NCBI GenBank assembly: GCA_965227295.1
Contig: OZ245742.1
Location: forward strand, 2,240,001-2,304,000
Origin: Leptonemataceae bacterium
GTDB lineage: Bacteria; Spirochaetota; Leptospiria; Leptospirales; Leptonemataceae
Direction of reading: 5' to 3'
Length of the DNA: 64,000 nucleotides
Program-made: the position numbers and the translations under genes
Shown: positions 9,977-49,817 of the stretch, in pieces
Numbering within the stretch: position 1 is the stretch's first letter
Layout: the number at the start of each line of letters is the position of its first letter
The notes under the pieces: model-generated
What the model was told of the DNA's origin: nothing
What the model saw: the letters and a program-made list of their open reading frames with translations, nothing else
The model's database searches: none

Positions 9977-10024
9977 GTCACCATTGTCGGCAACAAAAGG
10001 GGAATGCGAAGGCAAAGATCTTTT

Positions 10025-10136
10025 GGGCGTTCCGGACGGCGCCAGGCCCAGGCGCCGTCCGGCGGGCCACTCCGGGCTCCGCTTCGCTTCGGTCCTTCGG
10101 ACTCGCGCTACGCGCGACCCTGCGTGTCCCTAACGC
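10025..10136 (+). repeat. Structured multi-hairpin repeat element, intergenic copy
   Basis: gggcgtt...ccgggctccgcttcgcttcggt...accctgcg...ctaacgc, the same family as the copies at 39754, 42162, 45640 and 49573. Confidence 0.85.
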
Positions 10137-10185
10137 GAAGAAAAATCTTTTCTTCTTCTATCCTCGGTATCTCGGTCCTCGGAGT

Positions 10186-34333: not shown

Positions 34334-34470
34334 GGATTCCTGGCGAACGTTCGCGTCAGCGCCAGGCGATCGTTCTAAAAGTTAAAATCGTTTCGGGAGA
34401 AACGCACGAACCGGGGTGGCGTGTTGGTTCGTGTTACCACGATTTTGCAGATGGGGTTTCCCGGCGAGTG

Positions 34471-35067
34471 TTATTTTGTGACGCGCGACGAGCCGTAGAG
34501 CTGCCGGGCGTCTACCGTAAAACCGGGAAGGATGTCGCTTTCGATGGCGCCGTTCGGGGATTTCACCCGCGCGTTTTGCCAGGCCCGGCCGGTGTTCGCG
34601 CGCTTTTCGAAAGCACGCTGCGCGGGATCGAGAATCCAGTACTCGCGCACGCCGTGCTGTAAGTACAGTTCCGCCTTGCGGCCGCGATCGTACTGTGCCG
34701 TGGAGGGCGACAGTACCTCGCAGACGAGATCCGGGGCGCCGTAGATGTAGTCGCCGACGATGCCCAGACGTTCGTTGGCGATGAAGCTAACATCCGGCCG
34801 AAGTATATTAAGGCCGTCGTTGAGGTGGACGTCGACCTCGGGCACCGCCTGACCGACGGGATGAACGTCGAGGTAGTTCATGAGCAACTGGCTGAACCGA
34901 ATCTCGGCCTGGCCGTGTCGGTAGACGAAACTGGCGCTCACTCGCATGACCCCGTCGATGAGTTCGTACTGGAACCCGTCGTCGGGGAGCCGGAGGTACT
35001 CCTGCGGTGGGCATGCCTGGCCGTCGTACCGCGGCCGGGCATGTGTCTTGCGCACGGTGGCGAGCAT
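34471..35067 (-). CDS. Uma2-family endonuclease
   Basis: YELIDG, LRPDVSF, GAPDLVCEVLSPST, GVREYWILDP and SDILPGF. Confidence 0.9.
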   Translation of the reverse strand: MLATVRKTHARPRYDGQACPPQEYLRLPDDGFQYELIDGVMRVSASFVYRHGQAEIRFSQLLMNYLDVHPVGQAVPEVDVHLNDGLNILRPDVSFIANERLGIVGDYIYGAPDLVCEVLSPSTAQYDRGRKAELYLQHGVREYWILDPAQRAFEKRANTGRAWQNARVKSPNGAIESDILPGFTVDARQLYGSSRVTK

Positions 35068-35268
35068 AGAGAATCCTACCGTTTTTCCCGACGATGGTCA
35101 AGCAAGATGGTTCCGAAAGCCGCGTTCGTTCCGCGTTTTTTTCGGTATCGGGAAGAAAGTGTCGGTGTTTCGGAGGACGTTCCGGTCACGAAGACCGCAC
35201 AGGAGAGGACGAGAGCCGTGATTGATTGCATGACTCCCGTCCTCTCGCAATTCAGAAGCAAGTGCGGA

Positions 35269-35688
35269 TCAATATCCGCCCTTGTTTTTGTTGCCTTTGT
35301 TTTCTTTGCGCTTCTCGCGCATCTCTTTCATCGCCGCCTTACAGGTGTTCGAGAGCTTATCCTTGTTCTCTTTGAAACACGCGCGCAGGCCCTTGCCCGG
35401 TTCGGCGTCGGGGCAGAGCTTTGCTTTGTCCGCCTGGCAAGCCTCGCGAACTTTCATCATCATCTCGTGATGTTTTTTCATCTTTGCCTGGCATTCCGGA
35501 GAGAACTTGTCCTTGTTCTCTTTGATGCACTCGCGCAGACGGCCGTCGCCCGGCTTGATGCCTTCGCAGATCGTCTCCACTTCTTCGAAGCACGGGCCCT
35601 TCGGACCTTTGCGATCTTCGGCAAGCAGCGGCAGTGCTACAGCGGCACTGAGAATGGCGGTGAGTAAAATCGATTTCCAGTGATTCAT
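35269..35688 (-). CDS. Secreted cysteine-rich repeat protein (two C-x7-C...C...C units)
   Basis: Signal peptide; CFEEVETICEGIKPGDGRLRECIKENKDKFSPEC and CQADKAKLCPDAEPGKGLRACFKENKDKLSNTC; RBS AAGGAG. Confidence 0.8.
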   Translation of the reverse strand: MNHWKSILLTAILSAAVALPLLAEDRKGPKGPCFEEVETICEGIKPGDGRLRECIKENKDKFSPECQAKMKKHHEMMMKVREACQADKAKLCPDAEPGKGLRACFKENKDKLSNTCKAAMKEMREKRKENKGNKNKGGY

Positions 35689-35788
35689 GCGAATCTCCTT
35701 ATTCGTCATTGTTGTATAGAGAGACGGCTCTCGTCGCACGGATGTGCTGATATTTCCCGGGCGTTGTGTAAAGTAATGTAAAAACGAC

Positions 35789-38700
35789 TCATTTCGCCGC
35801 GGTGATTTTCCCGGGCCCGCCGGCGGCACCCACGATTTCCATATCCTGACGCATCTCCTCGACGGACTTGCCCGCGACCTTGCGACCGAGGTACTCTTTC
35901 ACGTCGAGGGCCATGCTGTACATGATCGGGACCATGCCCAGAGTCAGCACCGTGGAAAACGCGAGGCCCCAGGCAAACGACAGCGCCATGGGCACGAGAA
36001 ACGGATCGAAGCCGCCCAGGCCGTAAGCCGTGGGCAACAGGCCGAGGACAGTGGTGAGTGTCGTCAGCAACACCGCACGGAAACGCAGGCTCGAAGCTTC
36101 CAGCGCCACTTCGATGTTGGAAAGCTCCGGTTGTTCCACGCGAATGCGGTTCGCGAAGTCGACGAGTACGATGGAGTCGTTCACCACGACGCCGGCGAGA
36201 CCGATGATGCCCATCAACGCCAGGAACGAAAACGGTTCGCCGTGAGCCGCGAAGGCGAAGATCACGCCGATCATCGCGAAGGGCACGGCGGCCAGTACCA
36301 CGAAAGGCTGCGTTAGCGAACGGAAGAGGGAAGCGAGAATCATGAAGATGACGATGACGCCCACCGCCGCCGCCCGGCCCAGGCTGCCCAGGGACTCCTC
36401 GGTATCCTTGTTCTCGCCGCCGAACTGCACCTGGTAGGACGGATACTGGTCCGGAATATCTTTTGCGGCCTCGCGGATTTTTTCCGTAGCTTCTGCTGAG
36501 GTGATCTTATTCTCGTCCACGTTCGCGGTGACGCTGATCAACCGACGACCGTCCAGGTGCAGGATGGCCGTGATGCCTTTCGTGCGTTCGAAGGCCGCCA
36601 TGCTCGAAACCGGAATGAGATTACCGAGCTGGTTCTGAACGTAGATTTTGTTCAGCGAGTTCAGATCGTTGCGGTTTTTTTCGGCGAAGCGCACGCGAAT
36701 GTCGACTTCCTCCTCCGGCGTTTTGATCGACGTCGCCACCGTACCTTCGAAGGCCGTGTTCACCGCCGAGGCGATCTGCGCCACCGAAAGATTCGTGCGC
36801 GCCGCGACGGCCTCGTCGATCTTCAAACGGATTTCGTCTTTGCCCGCCTGGTTCGAGTCGTCGATGTCCACGATGCCGTCGATGGAAGCGAGGACTTCTT
36901 TGTACCTGTCGGCGATCTCATCGAGCACTTCCATGTTGTCGCCCATGATCTCGATGGCCACGGGTTTACCCACCGGCGGACCGCCCTGCATCTTTTCGAA
37001 CTCGATGTTCTCCACGCGGCCGCGCAGGTCGGCGAACTGCGAGGGGATGTCGTATGCGAGCGGGAGCTGCGTGATGGCCTGGGCGACCTTGCCTTCGTCG
37101 AGCATACGCTTTATGTTCTCGAGGTCGCGGGCTTTTTTATCGCGCAGGGCCTCGGGCGTGAGCATCCACTCGGTTTGATTGCGCAGGTGATCGATGATGA
37201 TCTGCGCCGGCAGGTCCCGATCCAGTTCCGCTTCGAGGTAGATCTTGAGCATGCCGTAGTTCGAGCCGCGCTTCGTAAACGGATCGTTGGCTTCTTTTTG
37301 CTGAATGCCGGAACGGGCGAGGAAGGTATCCAGCTCGCTTTCCGGTAGCTTCTCGATCTCGATGCCGACGGCGTGCAGAAAACGTTGCGTTTCTTCTTTG
37401 GTGGTGCCCGAGGGCAGAGTGACTTTGACGTAGAGCTGATCCACCGCGGCCGGGAACAACTTGAACTTACCGAACACGGCCTGCACGAAGATGGCGAAGA
37501 TGAACAGCATGAACATGCCGGCAATGACCAGGCCGCGGTGCCGCAGCATCCACCACAGCGAACTGCGATAGAAACCGTCGCGCAAACGTTCGAAGGCGTT
37601 GCGCACGAAGTCCAGGCTGCCCAGGATGGAGCCCAGCACCGAACGTTTGCCGGAGTTCTGCTTCCCGGGATCCTGGGCCTGGCCGTCGCCGCCGTAAGCC
37701 GGGCTGTACTTGTTCATGTCGTAGACGTGCGAGGGCAGAATCAAAAAGCACTCGAGGAGCGAAGCGATCAGCGCCAGGATCACCACGAGGGGAATCGTAT
37801 AGACGAACTTACCGAAGATGCCGGTCATGAACATCATGGGCGCGAAGGCCGCGCACGTCGTGGCGATGGTGGCCATTACGGGAGAAACAACTTCCGCGCT
37901 GCCCTTTGAGCAGGCCTCCCACAACGGATAACCTTCTTCCATGTAACGATAGATGTTTTCGCTGACGATGATGGCGTCATCGACGACGATCCCGATCACG
38001 AGCACCAGGCCGAACATGGAGATGAGGTTCATGGTCACGCCCAGATACTGCATGGCGATGAAGGTCATGCCGAAGGCGATGGGAATGCCCAACGCGACCA
38101 TGACCGAGGTGCGCCAGCCCATGAAGAAAAACAGCGACAGGATGACCAGGGCGAGACCGACGATGCCGTTGGAGATGAGAACACCCAGGCGTCGTTTTAC
38201 GAAGTACGAGATGTCGTTGACGGCGACGAGCTCAATGCCCTCGGGCACGTTCTTGCGGAAGCGTTCGACGATGTCGTTGGTTTTGTCGACAACGTTGATG
38301 ATGTCCCCGGCCTCGCGTTTGACGACGACCAGGCTGATGGACGGATGATTCAGCGTGGTTTCTAAGTAGTCCGGTTCTTCGAAGTCGTCGCGAACCTGCG
38401 CGACGTCGGCAACCTTAACGTCGTAGCCGACCTCGTTCGAGCGAACGTAGGTGCGTCGAATCTCTTCGGCGTTTTCGTACTCGCCCACGGTGCGCACGAT
38501 CACCTCGCGTTTGCCCAGGTTGATCTCACCGCCCGGCAGACTGACGTTGCGCGCCTTCAGTGCGTTGTTGATGGCGCCGGTGCCGAGGTAATACCGTTGC
38601 AAAAGATCCGGATCGGTTTCGACGAAGATTTCGCGGTCGCGCCAGCCCTTGCGTTCCACCCGGGCGACCTCGTCGAGTTCGAGGAAGCGGTTCTCCAGGC

Positions 38701-39196
38701 GCCGCGCCAGTTCGCGCAGTTCGCCGTAGCTGAGCGGATACACGCCGTTCACCGGCTTCATCACCAGCGACCATTCAATCACCGGCGTGCGCGACGTGCC
38801 GATCTCGATGATGAGCGGGTCCTCGGCGTCTTCGGGCAGATCTTCCGTGCGATCGACGGCACTGCGAATGTCGTCGATGACCTTCTGCGTATCCTTTTCG
38901 TCGGGATCGATCTGGATGACGATGCCGGAGCGGCTTTCGATGGAACTGGAACGATACTCCTCCAGTCCGTCGACTTCTTTGATGGATTCTTCGAGGGGAA
39001 TCGTGACGAGCTTTTCGACTTCCTGCGGCGACGCGCCCGGATAGATCGTGTTTACCGAGACGATGTCGAAGTCGATGTTCGGAAAGGCCTCCCGGTTCAT
39101 GGTGAGGGCGATGAAACCGCCCACGCCGATCAGGATAACCGTCAGCAAGTTGACGAAGATGCTTCTATTTAAGAAATAATCAATCAGTCCCTGCAT
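35789..39196 (-). CDS. Efflux RND transporter permease subunit (AcrB/AcrD/AcrF family)
   Basis: REAFP, YPGASPQEVE, GIVVDDAIIVSEN, GVVVNDSIVLVD and RFRAVLLTTLTT. Confidence 0.93.
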   Translation of the reverse strand: MQGLIDYFLNRSIFVNLLTVILIGVGGFIALTMNREAFPNIDFDIVSVNTIYPGASPQEVEKLVTIPLEESIKEVDGLEEYRSSSIESRSGIVIQIDPDEKDTQKVIDDIRSAVDRTEDLPEDAEDPLIIEIGTSRTPVIEWSLVMKPVNGVYPLSYGELRELARRLENRFLELDEVARVERKGWRDREIFVETDPDLLQRYYLGTGAINNALKARNVSLPGGEINLGKREVIVRTVGEYENAEEIRRTYVRSNEVGYDVKVADVAQVRDDFEEPDYLETTLNHPSISLVVVKREAGDIINVVDKTNDIVERFRKNVPEGIELVAVNDISYFVKRRLGVLISNGIVGLALVILSLFFFMGWRTSVMVALGIPIAFGMTFIAMQYLGVTMNLISMFGLVLVIGIVVDDAIIVSENIYRYMEEGYPLWEACSKGSAEVVSPVMATIATTCAAFAPMMFMTGIFGKFVYTIPLVVILALIASLLECFLILPSHVYDMNKYSPAYGGDGQAQDPGKQNSGKRSVLGSILGSLDFVRNAFERLRDGFYRSSLWWMLRHRGLVIAGMFMLFIFAIFVQAVFGKFKLFPAAVDQLYVKVTLPSGTTKEETQRFLHAVGIEIEKLPESELDTFLARSGIQQKEANDPFTKRGSNYGMLKIYLEAELDRDLPAQIIIDHLRNQTEWMLTPEALRDKKARDLENIKRMLDEGKVAQAITQLPLAYDIPSQFADLRGRVENIEFEKMQGGPPVGKPVAIEIMGDNMEVLDEIADRYKEVLASIDGIVDIDDSNQAGKDEIRLKIDEAVAARTNLSVAQIASAVNTAFEGTVATSIKTPEEEVDIRVRFAEKNRNDLNSLNKIYVQNQLGNLIPVSSMAAFERTKGITAILHLDGRRLISVTANVDENKITSAEATEKIREAAKDIPDQYPSYQVQFGGENKDTEESLGSLGRAAAVGVIVIFMILASLFRSLTQPFVVLAAVPFAMIGVIFAFAAHGEPFSFLALMGIIGLAGVVVNDSIVLVDFANRIRVEQPELSNIEVALEASSLRFRAVLLTTLTTVLGLLPTAYGLGGFDPFLVPMALSFAWGLAFSTVLTLGMVPIMYSMALDVKEYLGRKVAGKSVEEMRQDMEIVGAAGGPGKITAAK

Positions 39197-39299
39197 GATC
39201 TTCGTTCTCCTGCCGAGCGAACCGCTGTATTATCCGTACACCGCAGCAGGTTTCGGATGTCAATTGGTTCAATGAGGGGGAATCTTACGGCGTCTGCTG

Positions 39300-39325
39300 A
39301 ATTCCGCCACCGCGGTGGCGGAATT
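39300..39325. repeat. Perfect 26-bp palindrome at the distal end of the toxin array
   Basis: aattccgccaccgcggtggcggaatt is its own reverse complement. Confidence 0.8.
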
Positions 39326-39489
39326 GGGCGCGGGTCATGCTCCGACGCGCTAAGGCGCGAATCCAGGCGGGGGGCGCTGGAGTCACGGTCACTCAGGGTG
39401 GGGAAGGGCTATGTTGGCGAAGCGGCGGAGATTTTCGCAAGGAGATTTTCGGTCGGTGATGCGGGTTTGCGGGAGCGATGTGGCTGGAA

Positions 39490-39747
39490 TGCCGACACCG
39501 GTCCCGATGCCGTGAAAGCCGCCCTGCGTAATATCACTTATGCCGACGCTCTGTTGAAACGAAAGATCCCAGGTATCGTTCGCGTTGTACGTCAGACCCG
39601 TGCCGACGCTGTGACCGTAACTGTACTGACCCTCGCGGCCATCCCACGCCGTACTCACGCCGCCGGTAAAACTCAGGTCGCTGCCGGTCGGTCCGAAACC
39701 CACGCCCACGTTCCACGAGGCCTGGCCCAGATTATTGTGAATGTTGC
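39490..39747 (-). pseudogene. Truncated cassette 4: pre-HINT fragment of the toxin gene only
   Basis: Near-identical to about 52645-52900 of the main gene (NIHNNLG...GFHGIGTGVG), then homology stops; no HINT or toxin follows. Confidence 0.85.
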
Positions 39748-39753
39748 CTATTT

Positions 39754-39892
39754 GGGCGTGCCGGCCCGCCGCGCCGCGGAGGCGGCGGGCCGTCGCGCTG
39801 CTCCGGGCTCCGCTTCGCTTCGGTCTCGCGAAGACGCGAGACTCGCGCTATCGCGCGACCCTGCGCATCGCTCACGCTTGTGGTTCGGGGCG
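39754..39892 (+). repeat. 139-bp structured repeat at cassette boundary
   Basis: Identical by eye to 42162-42300 and 49573-49711. Confidence 0.92.
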
Positions 39893-39980
39893 TTGATTTT
39901 TTGCGGAGAATAGAACTCGTGACTTTGTGCCAGATGGATCTTGACTATTATATTCAATCACTCGGCGTGTAACAGAGCCA

Positions 39981-40466
39981 CTATTCGTGAAGGCTTAAGT
40001 CGAAATAATAGCAATCGAGACAATTGTCTCCGTAGCGCTCCCAGAATACCCTGAAAACCGCTTCCGCGCGAGAATACCCGGCATCTGCACGTTCTTCCCT
40101 CGAGGGAGAGGCATGAAGATCAATTTGTGGACCGTGAGTCGGATACTGAGCGAACGTCTGGGAGCATATAACTTCTCTATCATGCGCAAATACGATTCGG
40201 CGCTCCCCGTCCTGTAAGGCTTCGGAAATATCCAGGTCCCGGGTTTGCTGAATATTCCATGGCGTATCAGGACCATATAGCATTAGTACCCGATCCCATT
40301 TCCCGGATACGACATCGGATAGCTTTATGATGCATTCTCCACTTGAGGTTCCAGACTCTACACATTTTGCATAGAGCTTTGAACCCAGACCACAGTCATT
40401 AGAGCCCTTGCAATACGGCTGAGCCAGAGTACAGGCAAGAACAATAAATAAGCCAAGTTTTCGCAT
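39981..40466 (-). CDS. Putative immunity protein for cassette 3 (exported, Cys-containing)
   Basis: Starts 12 nt after the toxin stop; signal peptide; WD...GP and C..CY.F.L pattern shared with 50537-51001; low GC. Confidence 0.7.
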   Translation of the reverse strand: MRKLGLFIVLACTLAQPYCKGSNDCGLGSKLYAKCVESGTSSGECIIKLSDVVSGKWDRVLMLYGPDTPWNIQQTRDLDISEALQDGERRIVFAHDREVICSQTFAQYPTHGPQIDLHASPSREERADAGYSRAEAVFRVFWERYGDNCLDCYYFDLSLHE

Positions 40467-40478
40467 CTGTTTACTATC

Positions 40479-42152
40479 CTAACCTTTGCCGGCGAAAGCT
40501 CGTTTTCGGTCAAGCCAATCCTGTTCCGCTTTGGTTCGCCCTGTTTCGTTGCGATTTAGAATTTCCGAGCGTGCTTGATCATATTCAGCCTCTGAAAGCC
40601 TGATCCGCTCAATCTTGTAGACATTGTCTGCTGCCCCGGGGGCCTGTTCATTCACAAGAACGATTTGCCACAAGCCATTTGTCCTATACTCTTCGAGCAC
40701 TTTGAGAGACATCTCTCGCATTCCGATTCCGGGATTATCCGCGCCGATTCTTCTGCCAATTTCATTGTTTTTCAAGTCTACAACAGAATCGGCGTCCCTG
40801 CGGCCTCCGTCTCGAAGTCCAATAAACTCATGATCGTCAGCGTAAGTATCTGCGACTTTCGGATTCGGCTCATGGGCATCGCCTACTTCTTGAGCGATGT
40901 CTTCACCCAAGCGCTCGGCGATAGTAGCTTGCCAGAGAGTATGCCTGAAAGCATTTCTCTGTGTGCCTTCCCCGCCCATAAAGCTGGGTTCTTTGAGGCC
41001 ACTGCCGGTGGTGAATCTGACGGCAGTGCTCGTAATGTTGTCGGTACCTGCAACGTTGAGTCCGATGATGGCGGCCTCCACGGGATTCTCCAGCGCAAAC
41101 CTCTGTGTCCGACTGAGCAAGCTCCATGTTGTATCCAAAAGCGCTGAGAGTTCTCTTTCGATGTAATCGGGTATGGAAAAATAGTCGGCCGGATCTTGAT
41201 TGTGAACAAGGACTGAAATCTCGGAAACAAAAAAATTATGCTCATTGGCTACACTCAGGTTATAAACGTTACCCGAATAGCTCAGCCTCTTGATTTCCTT
41301 TATTCCGACCCTTTTTTCACTTGCCGTGATTGCTAAATCACCTGGCTGAAGTGATCGAGCCGGGACCCATCCCCTGCCTTCTATATAGAACGGATGGGAC
41401 CATGTTGTTTCAATGACCGTATCTTCGGTTTCAAAGGTAATCTTATATATAGAGGAAGTAGTGCGAACGAAAGTGTGAGTGATCGGTTTAAACACGGGCC
41501 TCGACTCCGCCAGATTCTTGCTGAGCACAAAATCGCCAACCTGAATTTCCTCGATGCTTTTGTACCATTTCCCATTGTGGAGGAAGGCTTCAGAGGTATC
41601 CGGATGCACACGCACAAGCGTTCCCGCAACAAAACAAGTCTTAAACTCAAATTCCCCATTCTCATCAATCCAGCCGTTCACGTTACTCGCATCGCCACCG
41701 AACAAGAACGCCAGTTCATCCCCGATGCCACCGATCAACTCTGACAACCAACTATCGCCACGCGAACCGCCGATGAACCCCGCATCCATCAACGCATCCC
41801 GAATCGGTCCTTCTTCATGCGCAAGTTCCGGATTCTCGCGCAGCTTCTCCGCCTGCTCCGGCGTAAGCTTGTCGTCTTTCACGAGCTCATCAATCTTCGC
41901 GAGCCGCTGCTCTTCCCACGCCGTCACATTCCCTAACTGCTTGTCAAGTTCACTTAACTCATCGCGAATCGCATCCAACCGCTCCGGTGACGTATTCGGA
42001 TTCGCCGCTTCCAGCTCCAGTTCCGCTTTTAGCGTGTGAATCCCGAGCGCCGCCGCGTCCAGCGATTGAATCTCGAAGTCCGTCGTAATCCCCTGCGACG
42101 CCGTAACATGCCCGTCGCCGAAGTTAAACGTGGTGCCGACGCCCGTCCCGAC
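40479..42152 (-). pseudogene. Silent toxin cassette 3: pre-HINT homology + HINT (41199-41636) + NAFRH-type toxin tip
   Basis: CFVAGT...TTWSHPF...VYNLSV...LVHNQ; NAFRHTLW...DAHE...DLKNNEIGR; in-frame TAA TGA just upstream; no signal peptide or N-terminal body. Confidence 0.85.
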
Positions 42153-42161
42153 GCTTCATTA

Positions 42162-42300
42162 GGGCGTGCCGGCCCGCCGCGCCGCGGAGGCGGCGGGCCG
42201 TCGCGCTGCTCCGGGCTCCGCTTCGCTTCGGTCTCGCGAAGACGCGAGACTCGCGCTATCGCGCGACCCTGCGCATCGCTCACGCTTGTGGTTCGGGGCG
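42162..42300 (+). repeat. 139-bp structured repeat at cassette boundary
   Basis: Identical by eye to 39754-39892 and 49573-49711. Confidence 0.92.
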
Positions 42301-42364
42301 GGTCATCTTCACTTGCGCATAGCGCCGTGATTTCGGGCACATTAATCACGCATGAACACTTCTT

Positions 42365-42838
42365 TTAATGGTCCGCGTTGTCGAGATCATCAAGAAATTT
42401 CTGAGGGTTTCTGACAAATTTCGCGGCAGGAGAGGACTTCATTTCACGGAGAATTAACTTATAGTTTGCAGGAATCAACCTGCCGGACTCGGAGATAAAG
42501 ACTAGTTCGAATGTCTTTGCCAGTTCTACAATTTTGATCAAGAGAGTGTTGTCTTTTCGAAGATCAAACCTCAAACGTATCTCACTCAGATAGCCATTCT
42601 TGAAATAGCACGTTAGATCCTCGCTTTCGACGTCGCCCCAGATTTTGATGTTGGGAGACCATGAAGAAGCAGAAGGCAGAAAATCAATGGCTTTGAGCAG
42701 ATTTTCTACTTTCCCATTTTCAGCCCACCACGCTATCGAATGAAACGTGTCTTGATCAATGACCATGGGCCATTCGGTGAGATTTGATTCCACAGATTCG
42801 CGAGGAACGAGATAGAATGTAGTTTGCCATGTCGCCAT
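42365..42838 (-). CDS. Orphan immunity-like protein
   Basis: 157-aa low-GC ORF (MATWQ...SWS...WG...S.AAKFVRNP.KFL) inside the toxin array, RBS GGAG. Confidence 0.6.
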   Translation of the reverse strand: MATWQTTFYLVPRESVESNLTEWPMVIDQDTFHSIAWWAENGKVENLLKAIDFLPSASSWSPNIKIWGDVESEDLTCYFKNGYLSEIRLRFDLRKDNTLLIKIVELAKTFELVFISESGRLIPANYKLILREMKSSPAAKFVRNPQKFLDDLDNADH

Positions 42839-42867
42839 GCGACTACTTCTCTCCAGCCTGGACCCGG

Positions 42868-43272
42868 CTACTTTTTTTGGATATCCTTTGTAGCTCGCTT
42901 AAGAAACCGCATTATCTCGAAAAGGTCGGACGTGGATCCGTCTTTGCCCCGGTGCACTGGAAGCAAGCGTTGCGAAGAGTTGGGCAGGTCGATCGTAAGG
43001 TATTCCGCAGTTGATTTTGACTCCGGGAACTGTATGTCCTTAATGTCCTCGTATCGAATCAATTGCCAGTGCAGGTCGGTCCGAATATGGACCCCAATCG
43101 TCGTAATCAATAAGGCGGAATCCAGAGTGTCCTCATGATTTCTAAAAATGCCGACGATTTTTTCTCCCTCTGTACACTCCGGCAAGGCGGACTGATCTAT
43201 GCGGATTCTCTCCGCCGGAGTATAACGCGACATGGGCCGGAGAATTCTGTGTGCACGTGATTCAACGTTCAT
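42868..43272 (-). CDS. Orphan immunity-like protein
   Basis: Low-GC ORF; ATG at 43272 lies 7 nt after the stop of a short upstream frame. Confidence 0.55.
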   Translation of the reverse strand: MNVESRAHRILRPMSRYTPAERIRIDQSALPECTEGEKIVGIFRNHEDTLDSALLITTIGVHIRTDLHWQLIRYEDIKDIQFPESKSTAEYLTIDLPNSSQRLLPVHRGKDGSTSDLFEIMRFLKRATKDIQKK

Positions 43273-43391
43273 ATGGTCCCTATAGCGGAATTTCGATCTT
43301 TTCTTTGTTCTGAGACTGAGAGAATTCTGCCTCAATACCCTTGCGCTTGAGCATTTCTTTAAGCAATCGACGTGGTTGTTAATTTGCGATC

Positions 43392-43793
43392 TCAGGCTGA
43401 TACAAAGTACTGACCACGATCCATGGCATCGGAGTCCATTTCTATGATCGTTTGACCGCCAGAAGGATCATATCGGATCCATTGGGTGTCATTCGTCGAA
43501 TTTTCGTCCGGGGCAGCAACCTGGGTCTGAAGAAGGCTTGCAATCTGTCCGTAGAGTGCTGTGGGCGTTTTTGAACGAAGTATATTGTTGTCAAAAAAGA
43601 GATCAATGAATGTGCGGAAATCGCCGGCAATCGGATAAAAAACGAACCAAACCGGAGACTCTCGATGTTCGGATATCTCTTCGATATTTCTCACAGCAAG
43701 GACTTGATTCGCAGGCGTATTCGTGATTGTGGATATGCACTGCCTGAGTTCAGTTGCTTCGAATGTTCCTTCGAGGATAAAGTTCAAATTCAT
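43392..43793 (-). CDS. Putative immunity protein for cassette 2
   Basis: ATGA overlap with the toxin stop at 43790-43792; acidic, cytoplasmic-looking, low GC. Confidence 0.7.
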   Translation of the reverse strand: MNLNFILEGTFEATELRQCISTITNTPANQVLAVRNIEEISEHRESPVWFVFYPIAGDFRTFIDLFFDNNILRSKTPTALYGQIASLLQTQVAAPDENSTNDTQWIRYDPSGGQTIIEMDSDAMDRGQYFVSA

Positions 43794-45632
43794 TTTTTTG
43801 CCAACTTCCAAACTTCTCGCGCTCTGTTGATATCTTCAAGGGGAATCTTCATTCTATCCAATATGTCACGCGAATATGGTGTGTCACCGAGCTGGTTGAG
43901 CACTCCGAGTGCCTTAAACTGAGCACGGTTGAGAAAGTGGAAGCCATCACCGGCAACGGGGAAAAGCGTACCGTTCGGCTTGATGCCGTATATTCTTCCA
44001 TTAATGATAAAATGGTCATTTAGGAGAATACCATTCCCTGCGTTAATTTCCGCGACGTCTGCATCAACGTCAACCCACGACTCGATTACGGTGTTTTTAT
44101 CCTTGGCTACTGTTCTCTGATTGACCCGATCTAGTGAGTGGCGGGATGCTGGTTTTCGAAATTCCTCACCACGTCTCTCCGGGTCTTCCGTGTAGTTGTC
44201 ACCCTGACGATCGCGTTCATTGCGTTCCTCCTGGCTCTCATCCGAATAGCGCGCTGGTGGAGGTTTCACTTCCTCTCCGGAATCGGGTACGCTTCCATCG
44301 CCCGGACGCCCGTCTTCAGGGTCGCCACTTATTAGCTCCGGCGGTTTATCATCCGCCGTGCACCACATTACACAAGCAGTACCGGCCCGGATAAGTCCCA
44401 GGGCTACCAGAGCATTAACTCCTGCTGTCCAAATCCAGTTGGCGTAATTGTGAACGAGAATGGAAGAATCCGAAACGAAATAGGTATGGCTTCCGGCAAC
44501 TTCGAAATTGTAGACCGTGGCCCGGCCCGGCTCAATAGTAATTCTGACAATCTCAAGGGAGGCTCCGGATCCAAGGAGAGAGAGCTGTCCCTCACGAAGC
44601 TTCTCCGCTTTTACCCAGCCTGCTCCAACGATATAAAATGGGTGGTTCCAGGTAGTTTTAACTTCGACTCCGTTGGAATAAAGAATTCTATAAATCTGAT
44701 CCGCTTCTCTGGCATATGTCTTCGTAACGGGAGCGTAGAGAGTCTTGCCGGCAACTTCATCGAAGCTGAGGACACGATCGCCGGCCTCAATGTTTTCGAT
44801 GAGTTTATAGGACTCTGCGTTTCGTTTGAAAGCTCCCGCGGTTTCTGGATGTACTTGCACAAGCGTACCGGCCACGAAACACGTCCGAAACTGGAACTCC
44901 CCATTCTCATCGATCCAGCCGTTCACGTTACTCGCATCGCCACCGAACAAGAACGCCAGCTCATCCCCGATGCCACCGAGCAACTCCGACAACCAACCTT
45001 CCCGCGAACCGCCGATAAACCCCGCATCAATCAACGCATCCCGAATCGGCCCTTCTTCATGTGCCAGTTCCGGATTTTCGCGTAGCTTCTCCGCCTGCTC
45101 CGGCGTAAGCTTGCCGTCTTCCAGGAGTTCATCAATCTTCGCGAGTCGCTGTTCCTCCCACGCCGTTACATTCCCTAACTGCTTATCAAGATCACGTAAC
45201 TCATCGCGGATTTGCTCCAGCCGCTCCGGCGACGTATTCGGATTCGCCGCTTCCAGCTCCAGTTCCGCTTTTAGCGTGTGAATCCCGAGCGCTGCCTTTT
45301 CCAGCGATTGAATCTCGAAGTCCGTCGTAATTCCCTGCGACGCCGTAACATGTCCGTCTCCGAAGTTAAACGTTGTGCCGACACCCGTCCCGATGCCGTG
45401 AAAGCCGGCCTGCGTAATGTCGCTCACACCGACGCTCTGCTGAAACGAAAGATCCCACGTATCGTTCGCATTGTACGTCAGCCCCGTGCCGACGCTGTGA
45501 CCGTAACTGTATTGACCCTCGCGTCCATCCCACGCCGTACTCACGCCGCCGGTAAAGCTCAGGTCGCTGCCCGTCGGTCCGAAACCCATGCCCACGTTCC
45601 ACGAGGCCTGGCCCAGGTTATTGTGAATGTTG
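43790..45632 (-). pseudogene. Toxin cassette 2: pre-HINT homology + HINT (44447-44881) + uncharacterised toxin tip
   Basis: About 750 bp near-identical to 52143-52900; CFVAGT...TTWNHPF...VYNFEV...LVHNY; distinct C-terminus (INGRIYG...GTLFPVAGDGF). Confidence 0.85.
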
Positions 45633-45639
45633 CTTATTT

Positions 45640-45760
45640 GGGCGTTCCGGCCGGCGCCAGGCCCAGGCGCCGGCCGTCGTGCTGCTCCGGGCTCCGCTTC
45701 GCTGCGGTCTCGCGAAGACGCGAGACTGGCGCTGCGCGCCACCCTGCGCATCACTAACGC
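45640..45760 (+). repeat. Variant structured repeat at cassette boundary
   Basis: gggcgtt...ctaacgc; same core, with a first hairpin resembling the 10025 copy. Confidence 0.88.
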
Positions 45761-46119
45761 TTGCGAATCCAACGTTAGTCGCGAAGAACCGAACGACCCC
45801 GTGGGTCGCGGTGCGAATTCCGCACACGTGTGCGAAATTCAGCATATCACTTCGGCAGAGGCGGACCTCTGCTAACCTATCTCGCCGCAATGTGTCCGTT
45901 CAGACTCCCTGCGCGCCTGTTAAAGATCCCCTGATCTCATCCGAAACACGGCCCTCACAGCAGTTATTTCGGCGTGCCTGTTGAGCACATTTCGTCAATA
46001 ATGCTACATGCAATATACGTTTGCAACTCTAATCGTACCGCTTGAAAGACAATCCTGCCTGGGGACCGCACGAAATTCAGCGAGAAATGATTGCGCTGGG
46101 TTTTCTCGAACGCCATCCT

Positions 46120-46590
46120 GCACAGACGTTTCTCAATCTGCATCGCGACCGCATTGCGGCAATGGATTTCTTTGTGGTGTATCTCTGAAACTTCGTACCC
46201 GTGTATGTTTTTTTTAGTCATCGGCCATGCTATGGCAGGCATAATGTTCTGCACGTGAATGTTACGAGGCATCCCACGTTCGCACGGGTGAAGCAGCAGT
46301 TGCGCGCGGCGTTTCCGGGCGATCACGATGCACGGTTTCTCGTTCACGACAACGAGCCCGTGTTTCAGGCGTGCCGGAGATTTATGGAAACCTGCCTGGA
46401 TATTGCGCCGCTGCGAACTGCGCTGTGCTCGCCGTGGCAAAATGGAATCGCGGAACGTTTCGTGAAGATTGCACGGAACATGTGTACGGATCACATTGTG
46501 CCGTTGAGTGAGCGGCACTTGTTGAAAGTCATGCGCGAGTTTGCGCAGTACTACAACGATGACCGTGGTCATTCACTTTCAAACTCGGAC
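46120..46590 (+). mobile_element. Degenerate integrase-core (rve/DDE) transposase fragment
   Basis: FLNLHRDRIAAMDFF (frameshifted, with stop), HVNVTRHPT, FLVHDN, SPWQNGIAERF and YYN..RGHSL. Confidence 0.8.
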
Positions 46591-46610
46591 ATTCTCGGCT
46601 CTCATCTTAT

Positions 46611-46955
46611 CTAAGTTGTGATCAGGGTCCATTCGCAGTAGGGTAAAGGTAAAAGATGGAGTGTTGCCTGAGCGGCGAAGCCTTCGATTTGGAAGAGAAT
46701 CTTGAGAAAAGGGCCATGGTGCCCTTCCAGGATTTCGATCTCCTCCGCCTTTTCAGAGGAAATCAAAGCTATGGTCCTTCCTCCGGTTCTGAGAATTACC
46801 TGAAAGGAGTCTTCCACTCCACTGAAGGAAAATTCCAACTCCGTATTTTCCTTCTCGTAGGAGAGTAAGAAGCGGTAAAATGATTCTTCTACGTTCTTTT
46901 CTATTGGCTCAATATCCAGCGCCTCAAGAAACTCTAATTCCGTGGGATGTTTCAT
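46611..46955 (-). CDS. Orphan immunity-like protein
   Basis: 114-aa acidic low-GC ORF (P.ELEFLE...EP...LEFSFS..E.SFQ) starting 3 nt after the stop of a short remnant frame. Confidence 0.6.
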   Translation of the reverse strand: MKHPTELEFLEALDIEPIEKNVEESFYRFLLSYEKENTELEFSFSGVEDSFQVILRTGGRTIALISSEKAEEIEILEGHHGPFLKILFQIEGFAAQATLHLLPLPYCEWTLITT

Positions 46956-47371
46956 CCTTTATGGTGCTCCTCTAAACGGTATCGTTGTGGAAAGCTTGCG
47001 TGTCCCGTCATCTTCAGCATGTCCTAATTTCTTGGCCAGTGCACGGGCTCCCTCGTGAATACGCGGATCGAGACTGTGCAGTGCTGGCCAGAACTCGGCT
47101 TAGCATCCGTTGAGCGTATGCAGCCGATCCTGCGCCGCCGCCAATCCCAAGTCCTACCAGCCATTGGCCGGGGCCGGTAGACGTTAACCATAAAGAGGCA
47201 GGACCGCAAAACGCCCAACACCCAATGGTGGTTCCCGCCAGTCCGGCTCCGATGAACTCTTATAGAACCTTGAATTCCGGTCATAGCCGCTTCGCTTGCT
47301 GCTACTTTCAAGACCGCAATCTCGGGGCCCTTACTTCCACCTTGCGAATCGTACCTGCTACCATGTTTTGT

Positions 47372-47785
47372 TTATTGATCGGAAAGAAAGAACAGATGCG
47401 AGTCGGGGAGGCGCTTTACTATAGCGGCTTTTTCCAGGCATGCGAGAGCATCGGCAACAAGCTTATGATTCTGCCATTCTGGAAAGTGTGCTACATGATT
47501 CGAAGCAAATCGGTAGAGGCGCCATGCGTCAAACCCGTCAACTCGACCATTGGGACCAAAGTCGAAATCAACTATTTCGCCTCCCTTAAGGTCTTCAATC
47601 GTACAACCCATTCCATGGAAAGTTATCGTCCAATGTTTCCCTGGAACCTCCTCACCCGAGCGTATCAGGCGCTTTCTATGTGCTCGCAATAAATCACTTT
47701 CAGAAAACGCATCCGTCAATTCCTGAAATACAGATGTTGTCGTACGTACATATTCATTTATGAGCGGAATCAGATCTAAATTCAT
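47372..47785 (-). CDS. Putative immunity protein for cassette 1 (DUF6896-like)
   Basis: Starts 2 nt after the toxin stop; FHGMGC...VDFDFGPNGRVDGFDAWRL motif. Confidence 0.7.
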   Translation of the reverse strand: MNLDLIPLINEYVRTTTSVFQELTDAFSESDLLRAHRKRLIRSGEEVPGKHWTITFHGMGCTIEDLKGGEIVDFDFGPNGRVDGFDAWRLYRFASNHVAHFPEWQNHKLVADALACLEKAAIVKRLPDSHLFFLSDQ

Positions 47786-47787
47786 TT

Positions 47788-49563
47788 CTACCTCAGCTTG
47801 TCGGGGCCGGCTTCGACGGCGTGCCAGAGAATTTCATCAAGTGACCCGTACTTGTACTTCGTCAAAGCCTCAGCCTCATCGAGGACTTTGTAATGTACAT
47901 CAATTTTCGCACGTGCTGCTGCGGCAACGCGGTGATGGCCATCAAGAACATACTTACGGCCGTGGATGATGACTACTTCGATTGGATCCCCAATCCAGCC
48001 ATCTTGACGCATGCTTGCTGCCAGCTTCCTGACTGTATCCGAAGAAGCATTACCTCCAATGGAATGAGTCTTAAAGAACTCAGACGGTCCGGCTGTTCGT
48101 ATGGCGGGAACGATGCCCTGCCGCCCGGCAAACAACCTCGCGGCCCCGGCAGTCGTCAGCCTGAATCCAGTCCGTAGCGCCGAACCGATACCCCACACGG
48201 TCAGATAGTAATCGACCATACTCGGCACTTCGTCAATCGCACTACCGCCGAGAACCACGCCGTCTTTGCTCACGAATTCGAACGAATCACCGAAGTCATA
48301 CACCGCGCCGATCGAATCCCAGAGTTCCATCGGTACATTGTTAGCGTGCAGAAATTCTCTGCGTTCGATCTCGGTCAGCGCGGCTTCGATTTCTTCCTCC
48401 GGAACATTGACCGACTCAAGGAACATGCGCGTATTAGCAGCCACGTCGCCGTCACCATCGAGGATGCCGTTGTCGGCCATATGCAGGGCCTGCTGGACGA
48501 GATTGCGTTCGAGCAGGTCCGGATCGGGAGCGTCCGGGAAAGCGTGCTTCGGCGCCGTGCGGACCTGGCCGCTGTCAATCTTCTGTTGCACCCATCGATC
48601 GTAAGCATCGCCCGGGGCGTTGTGGACGAGCAGGTCCGACGTCGTCACATGATAGCTATGAGCGTTTGCTACTTCGAAGTTGTAGACGGTTTCGTTACCT
48701 TGCCCAATCTCGATCCCGACGATTTGATTCGTGCCGGTACTCGTCTGCGAGCGATCACCGACAGTGAGCCGTTCCGCCTGAGTCCAGCCTTTCCCCGCGA
48801 TCCAGAACGGGTGGTCATGCGTCGCCTGCACGGTCATTCCGTCTTCATAGGAAATCGTAAAGATACGATCAGAAGATCTTACGAACGTTCGCAGCACCCG
48901 GTTCCACTCAAGTCGGCCGGTCCTTTCGTCCCACGAAAGGACCACGTCGCCTCGAACGACCTCTTCGATCTTCTTGTAATACCTGCCCTGGATTTCGATC
49001 GCCGCATATGTTGCCGGAGCGACCCGCACGAGTGTGCCGGCCACAAAACAGGTGTTAAATTCAAACTCCCCGTTCTCATCAATCCAGCCGTTCACGTTGC
49101 TTGCATCGCCACCAAACAAGAACGCCAGCTCATCCCCGATGCCACCGAGCAACTCCGACAACCAGCCTTCCCGCGAACCGCCGATAAACCCCGCATCAAT
49201 CAACGCATCCCGAATCGGTCCTTCTTCATGCGCAAGTTCCGGATTCTCGCGCAGCTTCTCCGCCTGCTCCGGCGTAAGCTTGTCGTCTTTCACGAGCTCA
49301 TCAATCTTCGCGAGTCGCTGCTCTTCCCACGCCGTTACATTTCCTAACTGCTTATCAAGATCACTTAACTCATCGCGAATCTCATCCAACCGCTCCAGCG
49401 ACGTATTCGGATTGGCCGCTTCCAGCTCCAGTTCCGCTTTTAGCGTATGAATCCCGAGCGCCGCCTTTTCCAGCGATTGAACCTCGAAGTCCGTTGTAAT
49501 TCCCTGCGACGCCGTAACATGTCCGTCTCCGAAGTTAAACGTGGTCCCGACACCGGTCCCGAC
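47788..49563 (-). pseudogene. Silent toxin cassette 1: pre-HINT homology + HINT (48619-49050) + ParB/Srx-like toxin tip
   Basis: CFVAGT...ATHDHPF...VYNFEV...LVHNA; LAASMRQDGW...PIEV...VLDGHHRVAAA; in-frame TAA TGA just upstream. Confidence 0.85.
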
Positions 49564-49572
49564 GCTTCATTA

Positions 49573-49711
49573 GGGCGTGCCGGCCCGCCGCGCCGCGGAG
49601 GCGGCGGGCCGTCGCGCTGCTCCGGGCTCCGCTTCGCTTCGGTCTCGCGAAGACGCGAGACTCGCGCTATCGCGCGACCCTGCGCATCGCTCACGCTTGT
49701 GGTTCGGGGCG
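49573..49711 (+). repeat. 139-bp structured repeat at cassette boundary
   Basis: Identical by eye to 39754-39892 and 42162-42300. Confidence 0.92.
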
Positions 49712-49817
49712 CTTTCTCACAAGAACTGGTGGATTGCCGTCGCCTGGGGAGGAAGCGAAGAAAAGACGCGGAAGCAGAGTGGATTGGACCTCGTCTTTAT
49801 GGAGTCAGGACGAGTCT

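Follow-up and report, generated by a model that had tools for sequence, protein, structure and literature searches.

Orphan modules of the cdiA-CT/cdiI and rhs-CT/rhsI type (PMC3150448, PMC3967940) and of the silent mafB-CT type (PMC4287609) are presented, in the available portions of these sources, as 5'-truncated gene fragments with a toxin tip and an immunity gene, situated downstream of a full-length gene and sharing enough homology with it for tips to be exchanged by homologous recombination. In CDI, Rhs, Maf and similar systems, the origin and turnover of such orphan toxin-immunity arrays are usually attributed to illegitimate recombination of an unspecified kind and subsequent homologous exchange. 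The arrays described here share this arrangement and the common homology that permits exchange, but belong to toxin families other than those of CDI, Rhs and Maf (TIGR04388/PT-HINT and a family of ~4300 aa). Their structure suggests that a folding repeat, hereafter E, is the joint at which toxin cassette arrays are built and reshuffled.

The window, meaning the whole 64-kb stretch of DNA that was analysed, has housekeeping genes in its flanks, and every feature of the toxin locus given below lies on its (-) strand. The main polymorphic toxin gene (51012..56555) encodes 1847 aa, with a TIGR04388 ('Lepto_longest') N-terminal region at aa 36-943 (245.6 bits against a curated cut-off of 45), a PT-HINT pretoxin domain at aa 1496-1615 and a DUF6973 tip. 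At its 3' side are two small ORFs (49818..51061), of 174 aa (51061->50537) and 180 aa (50360->49818), which match no family and are presumed to be immunity or accessory genes. These are followed by orphan modules, i.e., 5'-truncated fragments whose homology with the main gene (83-96%) sets in at nt 52902 or 52663; PT-HINT was found in cassettes A, B and C. Cassette A combines a toxin fragment (47788..49565; homology from nt 52663), whose tip has no assigned family, with small ORFs (45964..47785): an immunity-type gene of the DUF6896 family (47785->47372) and three others encoding 95, 114 and 202 aa. The longest of these three stands before the linker that carries E copy c3, and its homologue (61.5%) precedes an E copy in another toxin array; a large protein search returned only the ORF itself, and Pfam assigned it no family. 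Cassette B contains a toxin fragment with tip (43790..45635; homology from nt 52902) and ORFs of 139, 155 and 157 aa (42365..43811), of which the last was considered immunity-like because it is 35.5% identical to an ORF after another main toxin gene. Cassette C (39981..42154) joins a toxin fragment, whose DUF6973 tip is 48% identical to the main-gene tip, to a 161-aa ORF. DUF6896 in cassette A was the only recognised immunity-type family among the cassettes, the remaining small ORFs matching no family. The array closes with stub D (39490..39747), 258 nt that are 95.7% identical to main-gene nt 52900-52643; downstream of it there is unrelated DNA and then an AcrB-family gene (39196->35789).

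All four units are headed by a copy of E: c4 (49569..49711) stands before cassette A, c3 (45632..45763) before B, c2 (42158..42300) before C and c1 (39750..39892) before stub D. The sequence-only reading had placed a multi-hairpin element within about 10 bp of the start of homology in all four cassettes, always in one orientation and with three copies identical over 139 bp, and in these respects it was accurate: the distance is 4-7 nt, c1-c4 are all co-oriented with the toxin genes, and c1, c2 and c4 agree exactly over 139 nt. In units A to D respectively, homology to the main gene begins 7, 4, 7 and 6 nt past the terminal ACGCCC of E; the joints are blunt, without microhomology, and the offset after ACGCCC is variable. 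Identity between c2 and c4 extends over 156 nt, and c3 is ~86% identical to the other copies. Directly 5' of c3 there is a conserved structured module of ~275 nt (45764..46052) with a perfect 26-nt palindrome. Numbering the main gene in its stop-to-stop frame, units A and C begin from aa ~1313 and units B and D from aa ~1233; only two junctions were formed in the window, therefore, each being present twice in the order I, II, I, II. The type II junction places TAA and TGA stops directly ahead of the cassette frame. In contrast to this complete identity over 139 nt, the cassette DNA adjoining c1, c2 and c4 is ~91% identical. Copy c1 is a mosaic: its body is of the type seen in c2 and c4, its 3' tail and junction of that seen in c3.

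E itself is a gene-less, intergenic, multi-hairpin repeat of ~125-130 nt. In one respect the sequence-only reading needs correction, as E also occurs well beyond the toxin locus: the family has ~214 genomic copies, dispersed over both chromosome strands. The fold is branched, with 4-6 helices and loops that are frequently GAA or GCA triloops, resembling the C(GNA)G mini-hairpins covered in the available part of a review (PMC13037366). When the toxin-sense strand was folded as ssDNA, z was -3.5 for c4 and -4.8 for c3, with 0/200 shuffles as good, and this strand folds better than its complement. Across 36 genomic copies, 97.4% of cells pair compared to 80.7% in shuffles (0/500), and 19 of 28 pairs display compensatory changes. 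Just 1 one-sided change was counted in 988 cells; such strict Watson-Crick variation is what would be expected of DNA, or of both strands. Rfam covariance models produced no match at E<=1 on either strand of window positions 39000-51500. Generic copies have an outer stem GCGT...ACGC and flanks TCTT...AAGA that could be terminal inverted repeats (TIRs), and some occur as inverted pairs (e.g., 4334910/4335089). A blastn search with a generic copy gave no match among phages and one weak, partial match among plasmids; full-length relatives are present in public genomes labelled as other phyla. Two identical copies of a group II intron, with RT present, sit inside E at the same base of the 3' motif, just after the terminal GC-rich hairpin, which identifies the 3' edge of E as an accessible target. 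A Cre-like island lies within a different repeat family (251 blastn matches) and not within E.

These structural data bear on the possibility that E functions as RNA. Transcribed with or without the ~275-nt module, E might act as an insulator or leader, or as a site of processing or stabilisation, such that silent cassettes express their immunity genes but not their toxin fragments, and selection would then keep E at the head of each cassette. The better fold of the toxin-sense strand, the constant agreement in orientation with toxin genes and the stops at the type II junction are all compatible with this, as is the pattern of variation in the ~275-nt module. Six further copies of that module were found, all within arrays of the ~4300-aa toxin family, and among the seven, 22 pairs changed on one side and three on both, mostly in ways that G-U pairing on the toxin-sense strand would tolerate; 155 other genomes of the order contained no match to it. 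Against this, E itself varies in a strictly Watson-Crick manner, and generic copies are not strictly oriented with respect to neighbouring genes: in a count based on crude gene calls, 58 were same-sense and 38 opposite within co-directional gaps, with another 37 in convergent and 23 in divergent gaps. (No orientation bias by replichore was detected either: 48/49 vs 53/64, p = 0.58.) A scan of positions 39400-51200 identified eight promoter-like sites (8.7 expected) and five terminator-like sites (11.8 expected), none of them at E on the toxin strand, and so nothing beyond chance was seen near E. An RNA function would also leave unexplained why toxin homology starts a few bases from E at many different gene positions. 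We consider it a doubtful reason for the association; the insulator or RNA-processing role offered in the sequence-only reading likewise finds little backing in the sequence.

A genome-wide census, comprising 13 orphan fragments at >=45% identity to 18 large toxin-family frames and one diverged fragment, showed that the association extends to six loci and to both of the unrelated toxin families. A co-oriented E heads 13 of the 14 orphans and ends 3-38 nt before the start of homology; this start was set by weak or protein-level matches for two diverged orphans of locus p, while one of the 13 qualifies only when a group II intron inside its E is discounted. The orientation of E relative to the toxin is constant in 14/14. 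Our own arithmetic from the copy count (~107 copies per orientation in 5.94 Mb) puts the chance of a co-oriented E ending within 30 nt at ~5e-4 per site, and the link between E and orphan cassettes is far from random. At least nine distinct junctions between E and toxin sequence exist in the genome, at aa 1220, 632, 900, 1233/1234, 1313, 2774, 3265/3267, 3358 and ~3474. Of 203 E copies, only those at seven toxin junctions and in one UPF0047 tandem pair had downstream DNA (within 30 nt) repeating the DNA upstream. With ~190 other copies lacking adjacent duplications, bar that one, it follows that E alone rarely makes joints, or else that joints survive only under selection at toxin loci.

The fourteenth orphan, at genome position 2363067, has the linker module and only the first ~10 nt of E. 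A site with the linker but without E is what would be anticipated if E were a mobile MITE that had been inserted before each orphan after the cassettes had formed, and the sharp limits of the 139-nt identity block at both ends, as well as the dispersal of the family, agree with such secondary insertion. The residual ~10 nt give this site the appearance of a deletion, however, rather than of an empty site. The outermost terminal bases seen in generic copies are missing from junction copies, E boundaries contain no conserved target sequence, no target-site duplication was recognised, and a non-exhaustive search found no parent transposase or IS. Secondary insertion is judged highly improbable on these grounds.

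Arrays were checked in 11 relatives. The expectation that E would recur at cassette junctions in other genomes held for four of them (G139, G129, G026 and G014) and failed for seven of the ten sampled first, where the arrays examined had no E-family match; one of the latter, G040, has a different repeated linker in its array. With orphan homology measured against the main gene of each genome, the E-family match lies 20 nt ahead of the start of homology in G139, 48 and 28 nt ahead in G129, and 10 nt ahead in G026, while in G014 E is upstream of two cassettes. Applied to the loci of 29 further relatives, R1 gave just one match, in the genome that it had matched already, and a pretoxin-alignment search of genome contigs returned 182 pattern matches, none of which was confirmed.

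Another possible history would make E a passive passenger, an ordinary repeat at the 3' end of toxin-immunity operons that was copied along with the cassettes, the intervening DNA being trimmed later, and that had no causal role. The alternation of junction types in the window fits block duplication; the G129 orphan is 92.7% identical to the last 2 kb of its main gene, as after plain tandem duplication; and 2.2 kb downstream of one toxin gene there is a co-oriented E, although this gene has no orphans. Yet for eight of the 18 large frames the next 12 kb downstream contain no E, and these frames likewise have no orphans. The junction copies derive from at least three generic sub-lineages, and the nine or more junctions here are joined by at least four in G026, G129 and G139, and each lies between a few and ~50 bases from one and the same edge of E. 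Many of these junctions are independent, and a single insertion followed by tandem duplication, which the sequence-only reading had offered as an account of the copies, therefore cannot explain an association spread over six loci, two families and four related genomes. A passive role for E in general seems quite improbable.

Besides being independent in position, the junctions have E copies that are homogenised. The nearest neighbour of a junction copy is another junction copy in 11 of 12 cases, and copies from three arrays reach 94-98% similarity, whereas the family as a whole averages 69%. One E lineage spans arrays of unrelated toxins, and the linker formed by the ~275-nt module and E is common to the arrays of both families. 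Taken with the blunt joints at a fixed E edge and the mosaic copies, these features are best accommodated by a recombination-site role, which had been among the functions proposed initially; no enzyme, circle or rearranged form was seen. In this explanation, to which we give about even weight, breakage is favoured at the 3' edge of E, where 5'-truncated toxin-immunity units become joined, and E thereafter supplies portable homology for cassette exchange. The process would begin with E as a dispersed, gene-less and strongly folding repeat of REP/MITE-like habit. The 3' part of a toxin gene, truncated at its 5' end and accompanied by its tip and immunity genes, would be joined a few bases past E, with a starting point that varies within the toxin gene, creating an orphan cassette headed by E. 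Near-identical E copies on one side and pretoxin homology on the other would then provide two arms for homologous recombination, allowing exchange, conversion or excision of cassettes or their transfer from one array to another. We infer that E causes the joints, for instance through fork stalling or strand dissociation at very stable hairpins, or through a nick at its edge, and that E copies are used as recombination arms today.

Several observations go against this explanation. Simple replication slippage does not usually leave blunt joints, and no nuclease, recombinase or transposase is tied to E. Duplication nor selection at toxin loci aside, the ~190 E copies that, but for one, have no duplication beside them count against it, as do the related genomes without an E-family match in the arrays examined. 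Under tandem duplication one would expect a further E behind the final unit, and most arrays lack it; a short stub ends three of five arrays, and may mark a later loss. Short-read contigs of two runs (X1 and X2) contained no circular or rearranged forms over positions 39000-57000, where they break at repeats; the few contig 'joints' extend for 20-43 nt on their sides, all within repeat copies, and say nothing about rearrangement. A third run, X3, contributed no contig to this region.

A more elaborate mechanism, a dedicated cassette system, would have a putative enzyme acting at the 3' edge of E, with E-to-E units mobile in the manner of attC cassettes. A site-specific nickase or relaxase could fill this role, as could a recombinase or an RT that copies E-terminated transcripts with end-to-end template switching. 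A fixed edge on the E side, a variable toxin start and blunt joints with 3-28 extra bases together form the pattern of a one-ended, 5'-truncating mobile process, and the constant orientation, the linker shared by unrelated toxin families and the homing of an RT-bearing group II intron to exactly the 3' edge of E are also in its favour. The available text on rAID-1 immunity arrays (bioRxiv 10.1101/471110) likewise reports repetitive intergenic sequences with an XerD-like recombinase. Against this, Y1/RAYT (PF01797), the HUH Y1 transposase, had no match in this genome, with matches in 6/14 reference genomes as a positive control; TnpB (PF07282) had none in the genome; and the best match to integron integrase TIGR02249 reached 85.6 bits against a cut-off of 265, none being at any toxin array. 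No recombinase was found beside the examined arrays or in the flanks of the window. Furthermore, the offset past ACGCCC is inconstant, E is scattered ~200-fold on both strands without clustering, and a search for the same cassette at two places found no identical pair. It is unlikely that leptospire-related bacteria make and move toxin-immunity cassettes by a dedicated process, in which a folded ssDNA (or RNA-end) element would mark the boundary and a putative activity would join 5'-truncated toxin segments to it; such an activity might nick the edge of E, or might reverse-transcribe RNAs that end in E and switch templates end to end. A separate idea, that E and the first bases of the cassette formed an omega-RNA-like guide, was dropped as there were no TnpB or IscB-type genes.

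Under the preferred explanation, in which E provides a breakpoint and then portable homology, the illegitimate step in the origin of orphan arrays acquires a visible and repeatable landmark, in that many independent joints, from two toxin families and several genera, share the same E edge, and is thereby made testable. The dispersed repeat family is likewise tied to a tangible effect on the genome. Should E prove causal, the places where new gene cassettes form would be set by small structured repeats; were the dedicated system true, polymorphic toxins would have a counterpart of integrons that works without a recombinase.

Among known repeats, E is most readily compared with REP/BIME, ERIC/IRU, Correia (CREE) elements and MITEs, sharing with these, as far as the available text of PMC3184786 and PMC10210955 describes them, a gene-less, intergenic unit (~125 nt) that forms hairpins and occurs in hundreds of copies on both strands. 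REPs are also the target of mobile elements, ISPpu9 of the IS110 family in the portion of PMC12288879 available, as E is of a group II intron. REP and REPIN sequences are short (20-40 nt), imperfect palindromes, often in inverted pairs, whereas E is branched and ~125 nt long, and falls outside that definition; it differs also in its multi-branch fold, its GNA triloops, the absence of RAYT/Y1 from the genome and its systematic occurrence where orphan toxin cassettes begin. Shyamala et al. in 1990 reportedly observed REP sequences at the join-points of tandem duplications in Salmonella. In bacteria, class C group II introns insert after stem-loops such as terminators or attC; the introns here also sit after a hairpin, but one that belongs to a dispersed repeat and not to a terminator. 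Borrelia vls and Neisseria pilS each have one expressed gene with silent partial copies, whose conserved flanks guide gene conversion. The toxin arrays resemble them in placing an expressed gene beside silent partial copies; however, the vls and pilS repeats are short, locus-specific direct repeats and vary surface antigens rather than toxin-immunity pairs, while E is a dispersed, structured family. Integron attC arrays and rAID-1 have in common with the present arrays, according to the available text of bioRxiv 10.1101/471110, promoterless units in one orientation that are bounded by a folding repeat, of a sort expected to function as ssDNA. They differ in that no integron/Xer-type recombinase adjoins the arrays here or exceeds its cut-off in the genome, in that the units are fragments of neighbouring genes, and in that the joint is not at a constant base. 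The attC repeats are confined to one array, each being a single imperfect hairpin with R/L boxes, while E is branched, has ~214 copies dispersed genome-wide and does not conform to this type. A literature search found no published description of E-headed toxin cassettes. The cdiA-CT, rhs-CT and mafB-CT orphans are not described, in the available portions of their sources, as delimited by a structured repeat, whereas 13 of the 14 orphans in this genome start at one.

The toxin locus lay on the minus strand, where the main polymorphic toxin gene (56555 to 51012, 1847 aa; TIGR04388 'Lepto_longest', PT-HINT and DUF6973) was followed by two small ORFs and then by four units, as delimited by ORF and GC3 heuristics made for this analysis. 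Residues 36–943 of the main protein matched TIGR04388 'Lepto_longest' with 245.6 bits (cut-off 45), the PT-HINT pretoxin domain occupied aa 1496–1615 and the tip was DUF6973. All four units began with one copy of the structured multi-hairpin element, followed by DNA homologous to the main gene. On the minus strand, copy c4 (49711 to 49569) headed cassette A, with a toxin fragment from 49565 that matched the main gene from nt 52663; c3 (45763 to 45632) headed cassette B (fragment from 45635, match from nt 52902/52900); c2 (42300 to 42158) headed cassette C (fragment from 42154, match from nt 52663); and c1 (39892 to 39750) headed stub D, 258 nt (39747–39490) with 95.7% identity to the main gene from nt 52902/52900. 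PT-HINT, a tip and small ORFs were present in each of cassettes A, B and C, one of the small ORFs being a DUF6896 immunity-type gene; unrelated DNA and an AcrB-family gene lay downstream of stub D. The sequence-only reading had described the element as adjoining the start of main-gene homology in every cassette, in one orientation, with three copies identical over 139 bp, and was accurate in all these respects. The distance from the element's terminal ACGCCC to homology was 7 nt in A, 4 nt in B, 7 nt in C and 6 nt in D; all four copies pointed as the toxin genes do; and c1, c2 and c4 were identical across exactly 139 nt (c2 and c4 across 156 nt), with c3 approximately 86% identical to the other three. 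Two more generic copies occurred in the window outside the toxin locus, at 10022–10141 (minus strand) and 60843–60967 (plus strand).

The element belongs to a dispersed family found beyond the toxin locus. There were 141 blastn HSPs in the 5.94-Mb genome, 214 matches to an HMM built from 36 copies (101 on the plus strand and 113 on the minus), and full-length matches to a covariance model of the element in 150 of 150 candidates scored. Copies were mostly intergenic, lacking strict orientation to their neighbours according to crude gene calls of our own, and showed no replichore bias. The predicted fold comprised a three-hairpin junction enclosed by an outer stem, plus a long GC-rich hairpin. 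Of the cells in the 36 copies, 97.4% paired, whereas shuffling lowered this to 80.7% and none of 500 shuffles equalled the observed value; changes were two-sided at 19 of 28 pairs and one-sided in a single cell of 988. Triloops of sequence GAA or GCA with a C-G closing pair were frequent; they are the mini-hairpin motif covered in a review (PMC13037366). Strictly Watson-Crick variation and these triloops together fit a structure that would matter as DNA, or on both strands. Folding z-scores as ssDNA were -3.5 and -4.8 for the toxin-sense strand and -2.1 and -3.3 for its complement. Rfam contained no match to the element, and no Y1/RAYT transposase, TnpB or integron integrase was found in the genome. 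The family was present in at least 18 of 25 genomes, the window's own and related ones (E<=1e-4; only 136 candidates scored per genome). Its exact 25-nt core occurred in eight public contigs labelled Spirochaetota, Treponemataceae, 'Bacteroidetes' or Methylococcaceae, all eight giving full-length model matches. With a generic copy as query, blastn returned nothing from phages and one weak partial hit from plasmids.

A genome-wide census was made with 18 large toxin-family frames as query, orphans being outside fragments at 45% protein identity or more, a detection that depends on similarity thresholds. The frames formed two unrelated families, TIGR04388/PT-HINT proteins (~1850–2650 aa) and ~4300-aa proteins, one of the latter with an Ntox30 tip. 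Thirteen orphan starts, spread over five loci, reached the threshold. A co-oriented element ended 3–28 nt ahead of homology in 11 of the 13, two diverged orphans of one locus (p) being less sure; in these, the first DNA match to the main gene was weak (26 nt) or distant (226 nt), and protein-level homology began ~115 and 7 nt past the element. For one orphan, homology began 25 nt past the element once an 1891-nt group II intron in the element's 3' motif was discounted. The orphan at 2363067 of the window's own genome (G000:C1) had no element; a 275-nt linker module and the element's first ~10 nt abutted its homology. A fourteenth, diverged orphan (29% identity) began 38 nt after the element copy at 768286. 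In total, the element headed 13 of 14 orphans, in toxin orientation every time.

The intron exists as two 100%-identical copies outside the window (G000:C1:2367836–2369726 and 2020594–2022484), with a 472-aa RVT_1 + GIIM ORF. Each interrupts the 3' motif of an element copy at an identical position, with ACG on one side and CCC on the other, and one of them splits an element-orphan junction in a ~4300-aa toxin array.

Junctions fell at different positions in the parent genes (aa 1220; 632; 900; 1233/1234; 1313; 2774; 3265/3267; 3358; ~3474), and therefore represent at least nine independent joints, none with visible microhomology. This number contradicts the suggestion, raised in the sequence-only reading, that the element is a pure passenger copied during cassette duplication. 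When the 500 nt downstream of 203 copies with a defined 3' end were compared with 15 kb upstream, repeated sequence that began no more than 30 nt past the element was found only at seven toxin junctions and one UPF0047 tandem pair. Eight of the 18 toxin-family frames had no element within 12 kb downstream, and these eight had no orphans; the downstream element was co-oriented with the toxin frame in all ten frames having one. That arrays were built by simple tandem duplication is opposed by the absence of a trailing element from most of them. A short stub terminated three of five arrays (258, 99 and 168 nt), which may reflect later loss or aborted copying.

The UPF0047 pair (G000:C1:4962800–4965710), the sole non-toxin duplication abutting the element in that scan, consisted of two 146-aa paralogues (87% DNA identity) with one copy between them and a second 2.3 kb upstream with the same 5' flank. 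Beside the copy of the first toxin array (G000:C1:39404–39582, plus strand), a gene of a multi-copy family started 50 nt later; the family has at least ten paralogues (56–63% identity), several in tandem at 34273–37899. Three different toxin arrays carried an IS with a 356-aa transposase (L050:8721–9791, L052:15324–16394 and L054:6234–7304), assigned as rve-type by a Pfam scan of the first copy, the others being equal-length ORFs. Within G000:C1:2989100–3001900, an integrase island had as its landing site a member of another dispersed repeat family, unrelated to the element (251 blastn hits), and a full PT-HINT toxin gene (2993199–2998730) lay right of the island junction.

Element copies also bore signs of mutual recombination. 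Cassettes A and C were only ~91% identical beside identical elements; at that divergence a stretch of 156 nt should contain ~14 differences, by our own arithmetic. Copy c1 combined a body of c2/c4 type with a 3' tail and junction as in c3 and cassette B, and is a mosaic whose crossover lies at the element's very 3' end. When 176 copies were aligned, the nearest neighbour of 11 of 12 junction copies (those at orphan starts) was another junction copy. Window copies were 94% identical to those of an array at 2.37 Mb (generic average 69%), which were 98% identical to one copy of an array at 5.01 Mb. The junction copies 523463/529858, 768286/5007917 and 42588 were each closest to different generic copies, so the general pool supplied the element on several separate occasions.

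Directly 5' of c3 lay the conserved, highly structured module of ~275 nt (window 45764–46052, minus strand), which contains a perfect 26-nt palindrome, GAATTCCGCACACGTGTGCGGAATTC. Its six other sites (G000:C1:768011, 2362784, 2367438, 2377203, 2381103 and 5008039) were all in ~4300-aa-family arrays, and no match was found in 155 other genomes of the order. Changes in its predicted fold were mainly one-sided and G-U-compatible on the toxin-sense strand (seven related sequences; weak statistics), a pattern that would suit an RNA. The palindrome also preceded element copies at 523402 and 529796. A 202-aa ORF (45964–46572, minus strand) was the last ahead of the c3 linker; its homologue (61.5%) at G000:C1:5012062–5012640 (minus strand) likewise lay just before an element, in a 4367-aa toxin array, and a large protein search gave no further relatives.

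The pretoxin alignment detected relatives in 80 of 156 genomes from the order (the window's genome counts among them); these were sampled rather than surveyed, with 12 array stretches from ten genomes fetched first. Three of the ten matched the covariance model (E<=0.01). In G139, orphan homology to its own main gene began 20 nt past the element; in G129, two units began 48 and 28 nt past it, the second a 600-nt stub; in G014, two copies preceded cassettes, with no offset as the main gene was off the contig. A fourth genome, G026, had the element 10 nt ahead of orphan homology, and 29 further loci gave one match, again in G014. Homologous arrays thus do not lack the element; yet it is not universal at their cassette junctions, the stretches fetched from the remaining seven of the ten genomes having no match. 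In G040 (38% G+C), one of the genomes without a match, a repeated linker of another kind lay between the nine cassettes. That PT-HINT array (G040:C2:311001–330000) has a short hairpin, CAGCAC...GTGCTG, in its linker, which ends in CCGCCCAAG. In three genomes, the element occurred as truncated 5' stubs (its first 10–30 nt) fused to unrelated DNA (L100 13846–13870; L101 12800–12829; G000:C1:2363038–2363047), which places breakpoints also just inside its 5' side.

Literature on orphan toxin cassettes and their repeats, Leptospira repeats and mini-hairpin families, a coverage that is incomplete and leaves absence unproven, yielded no account of a structured repeat that marks the boundary of such cassettes; none appeared in the portions consulted of PMC10210955, PMC4287609, PMC3150448, PMC3482391 and bioRxiv 10.1101/471110.

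The data require that orphan units join at the 3' edge of the element, repeatedly and independently, and that element copies recombine with one another. These two properties favour a reading in which the element provides both a fixed breakpoint and portable homology, about as likely to be right as wrong. A regulatory RNA role is conceivable, but leaves the tight abutment of element and toxin homology unexplained. Joints may form where synthesis dissociates or stalls at the element's very stable fold. Alternatively, they could arise from a nick at its edge, or from reverse transcription of element-terminated transcripts with end-to-end template switching; blunt joints with 3–28 extra bases and variable 5' truncation would suit both routes, which are kept as rivals because there is no candidate enzyme besides the reverse transcriptase of the group II intron. 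Known systems open to comparison are REP sequences at the joints of duplications, the silent cassettes of Borrelia vls and Neisseria pilS and, for the group II intron, class C introns.
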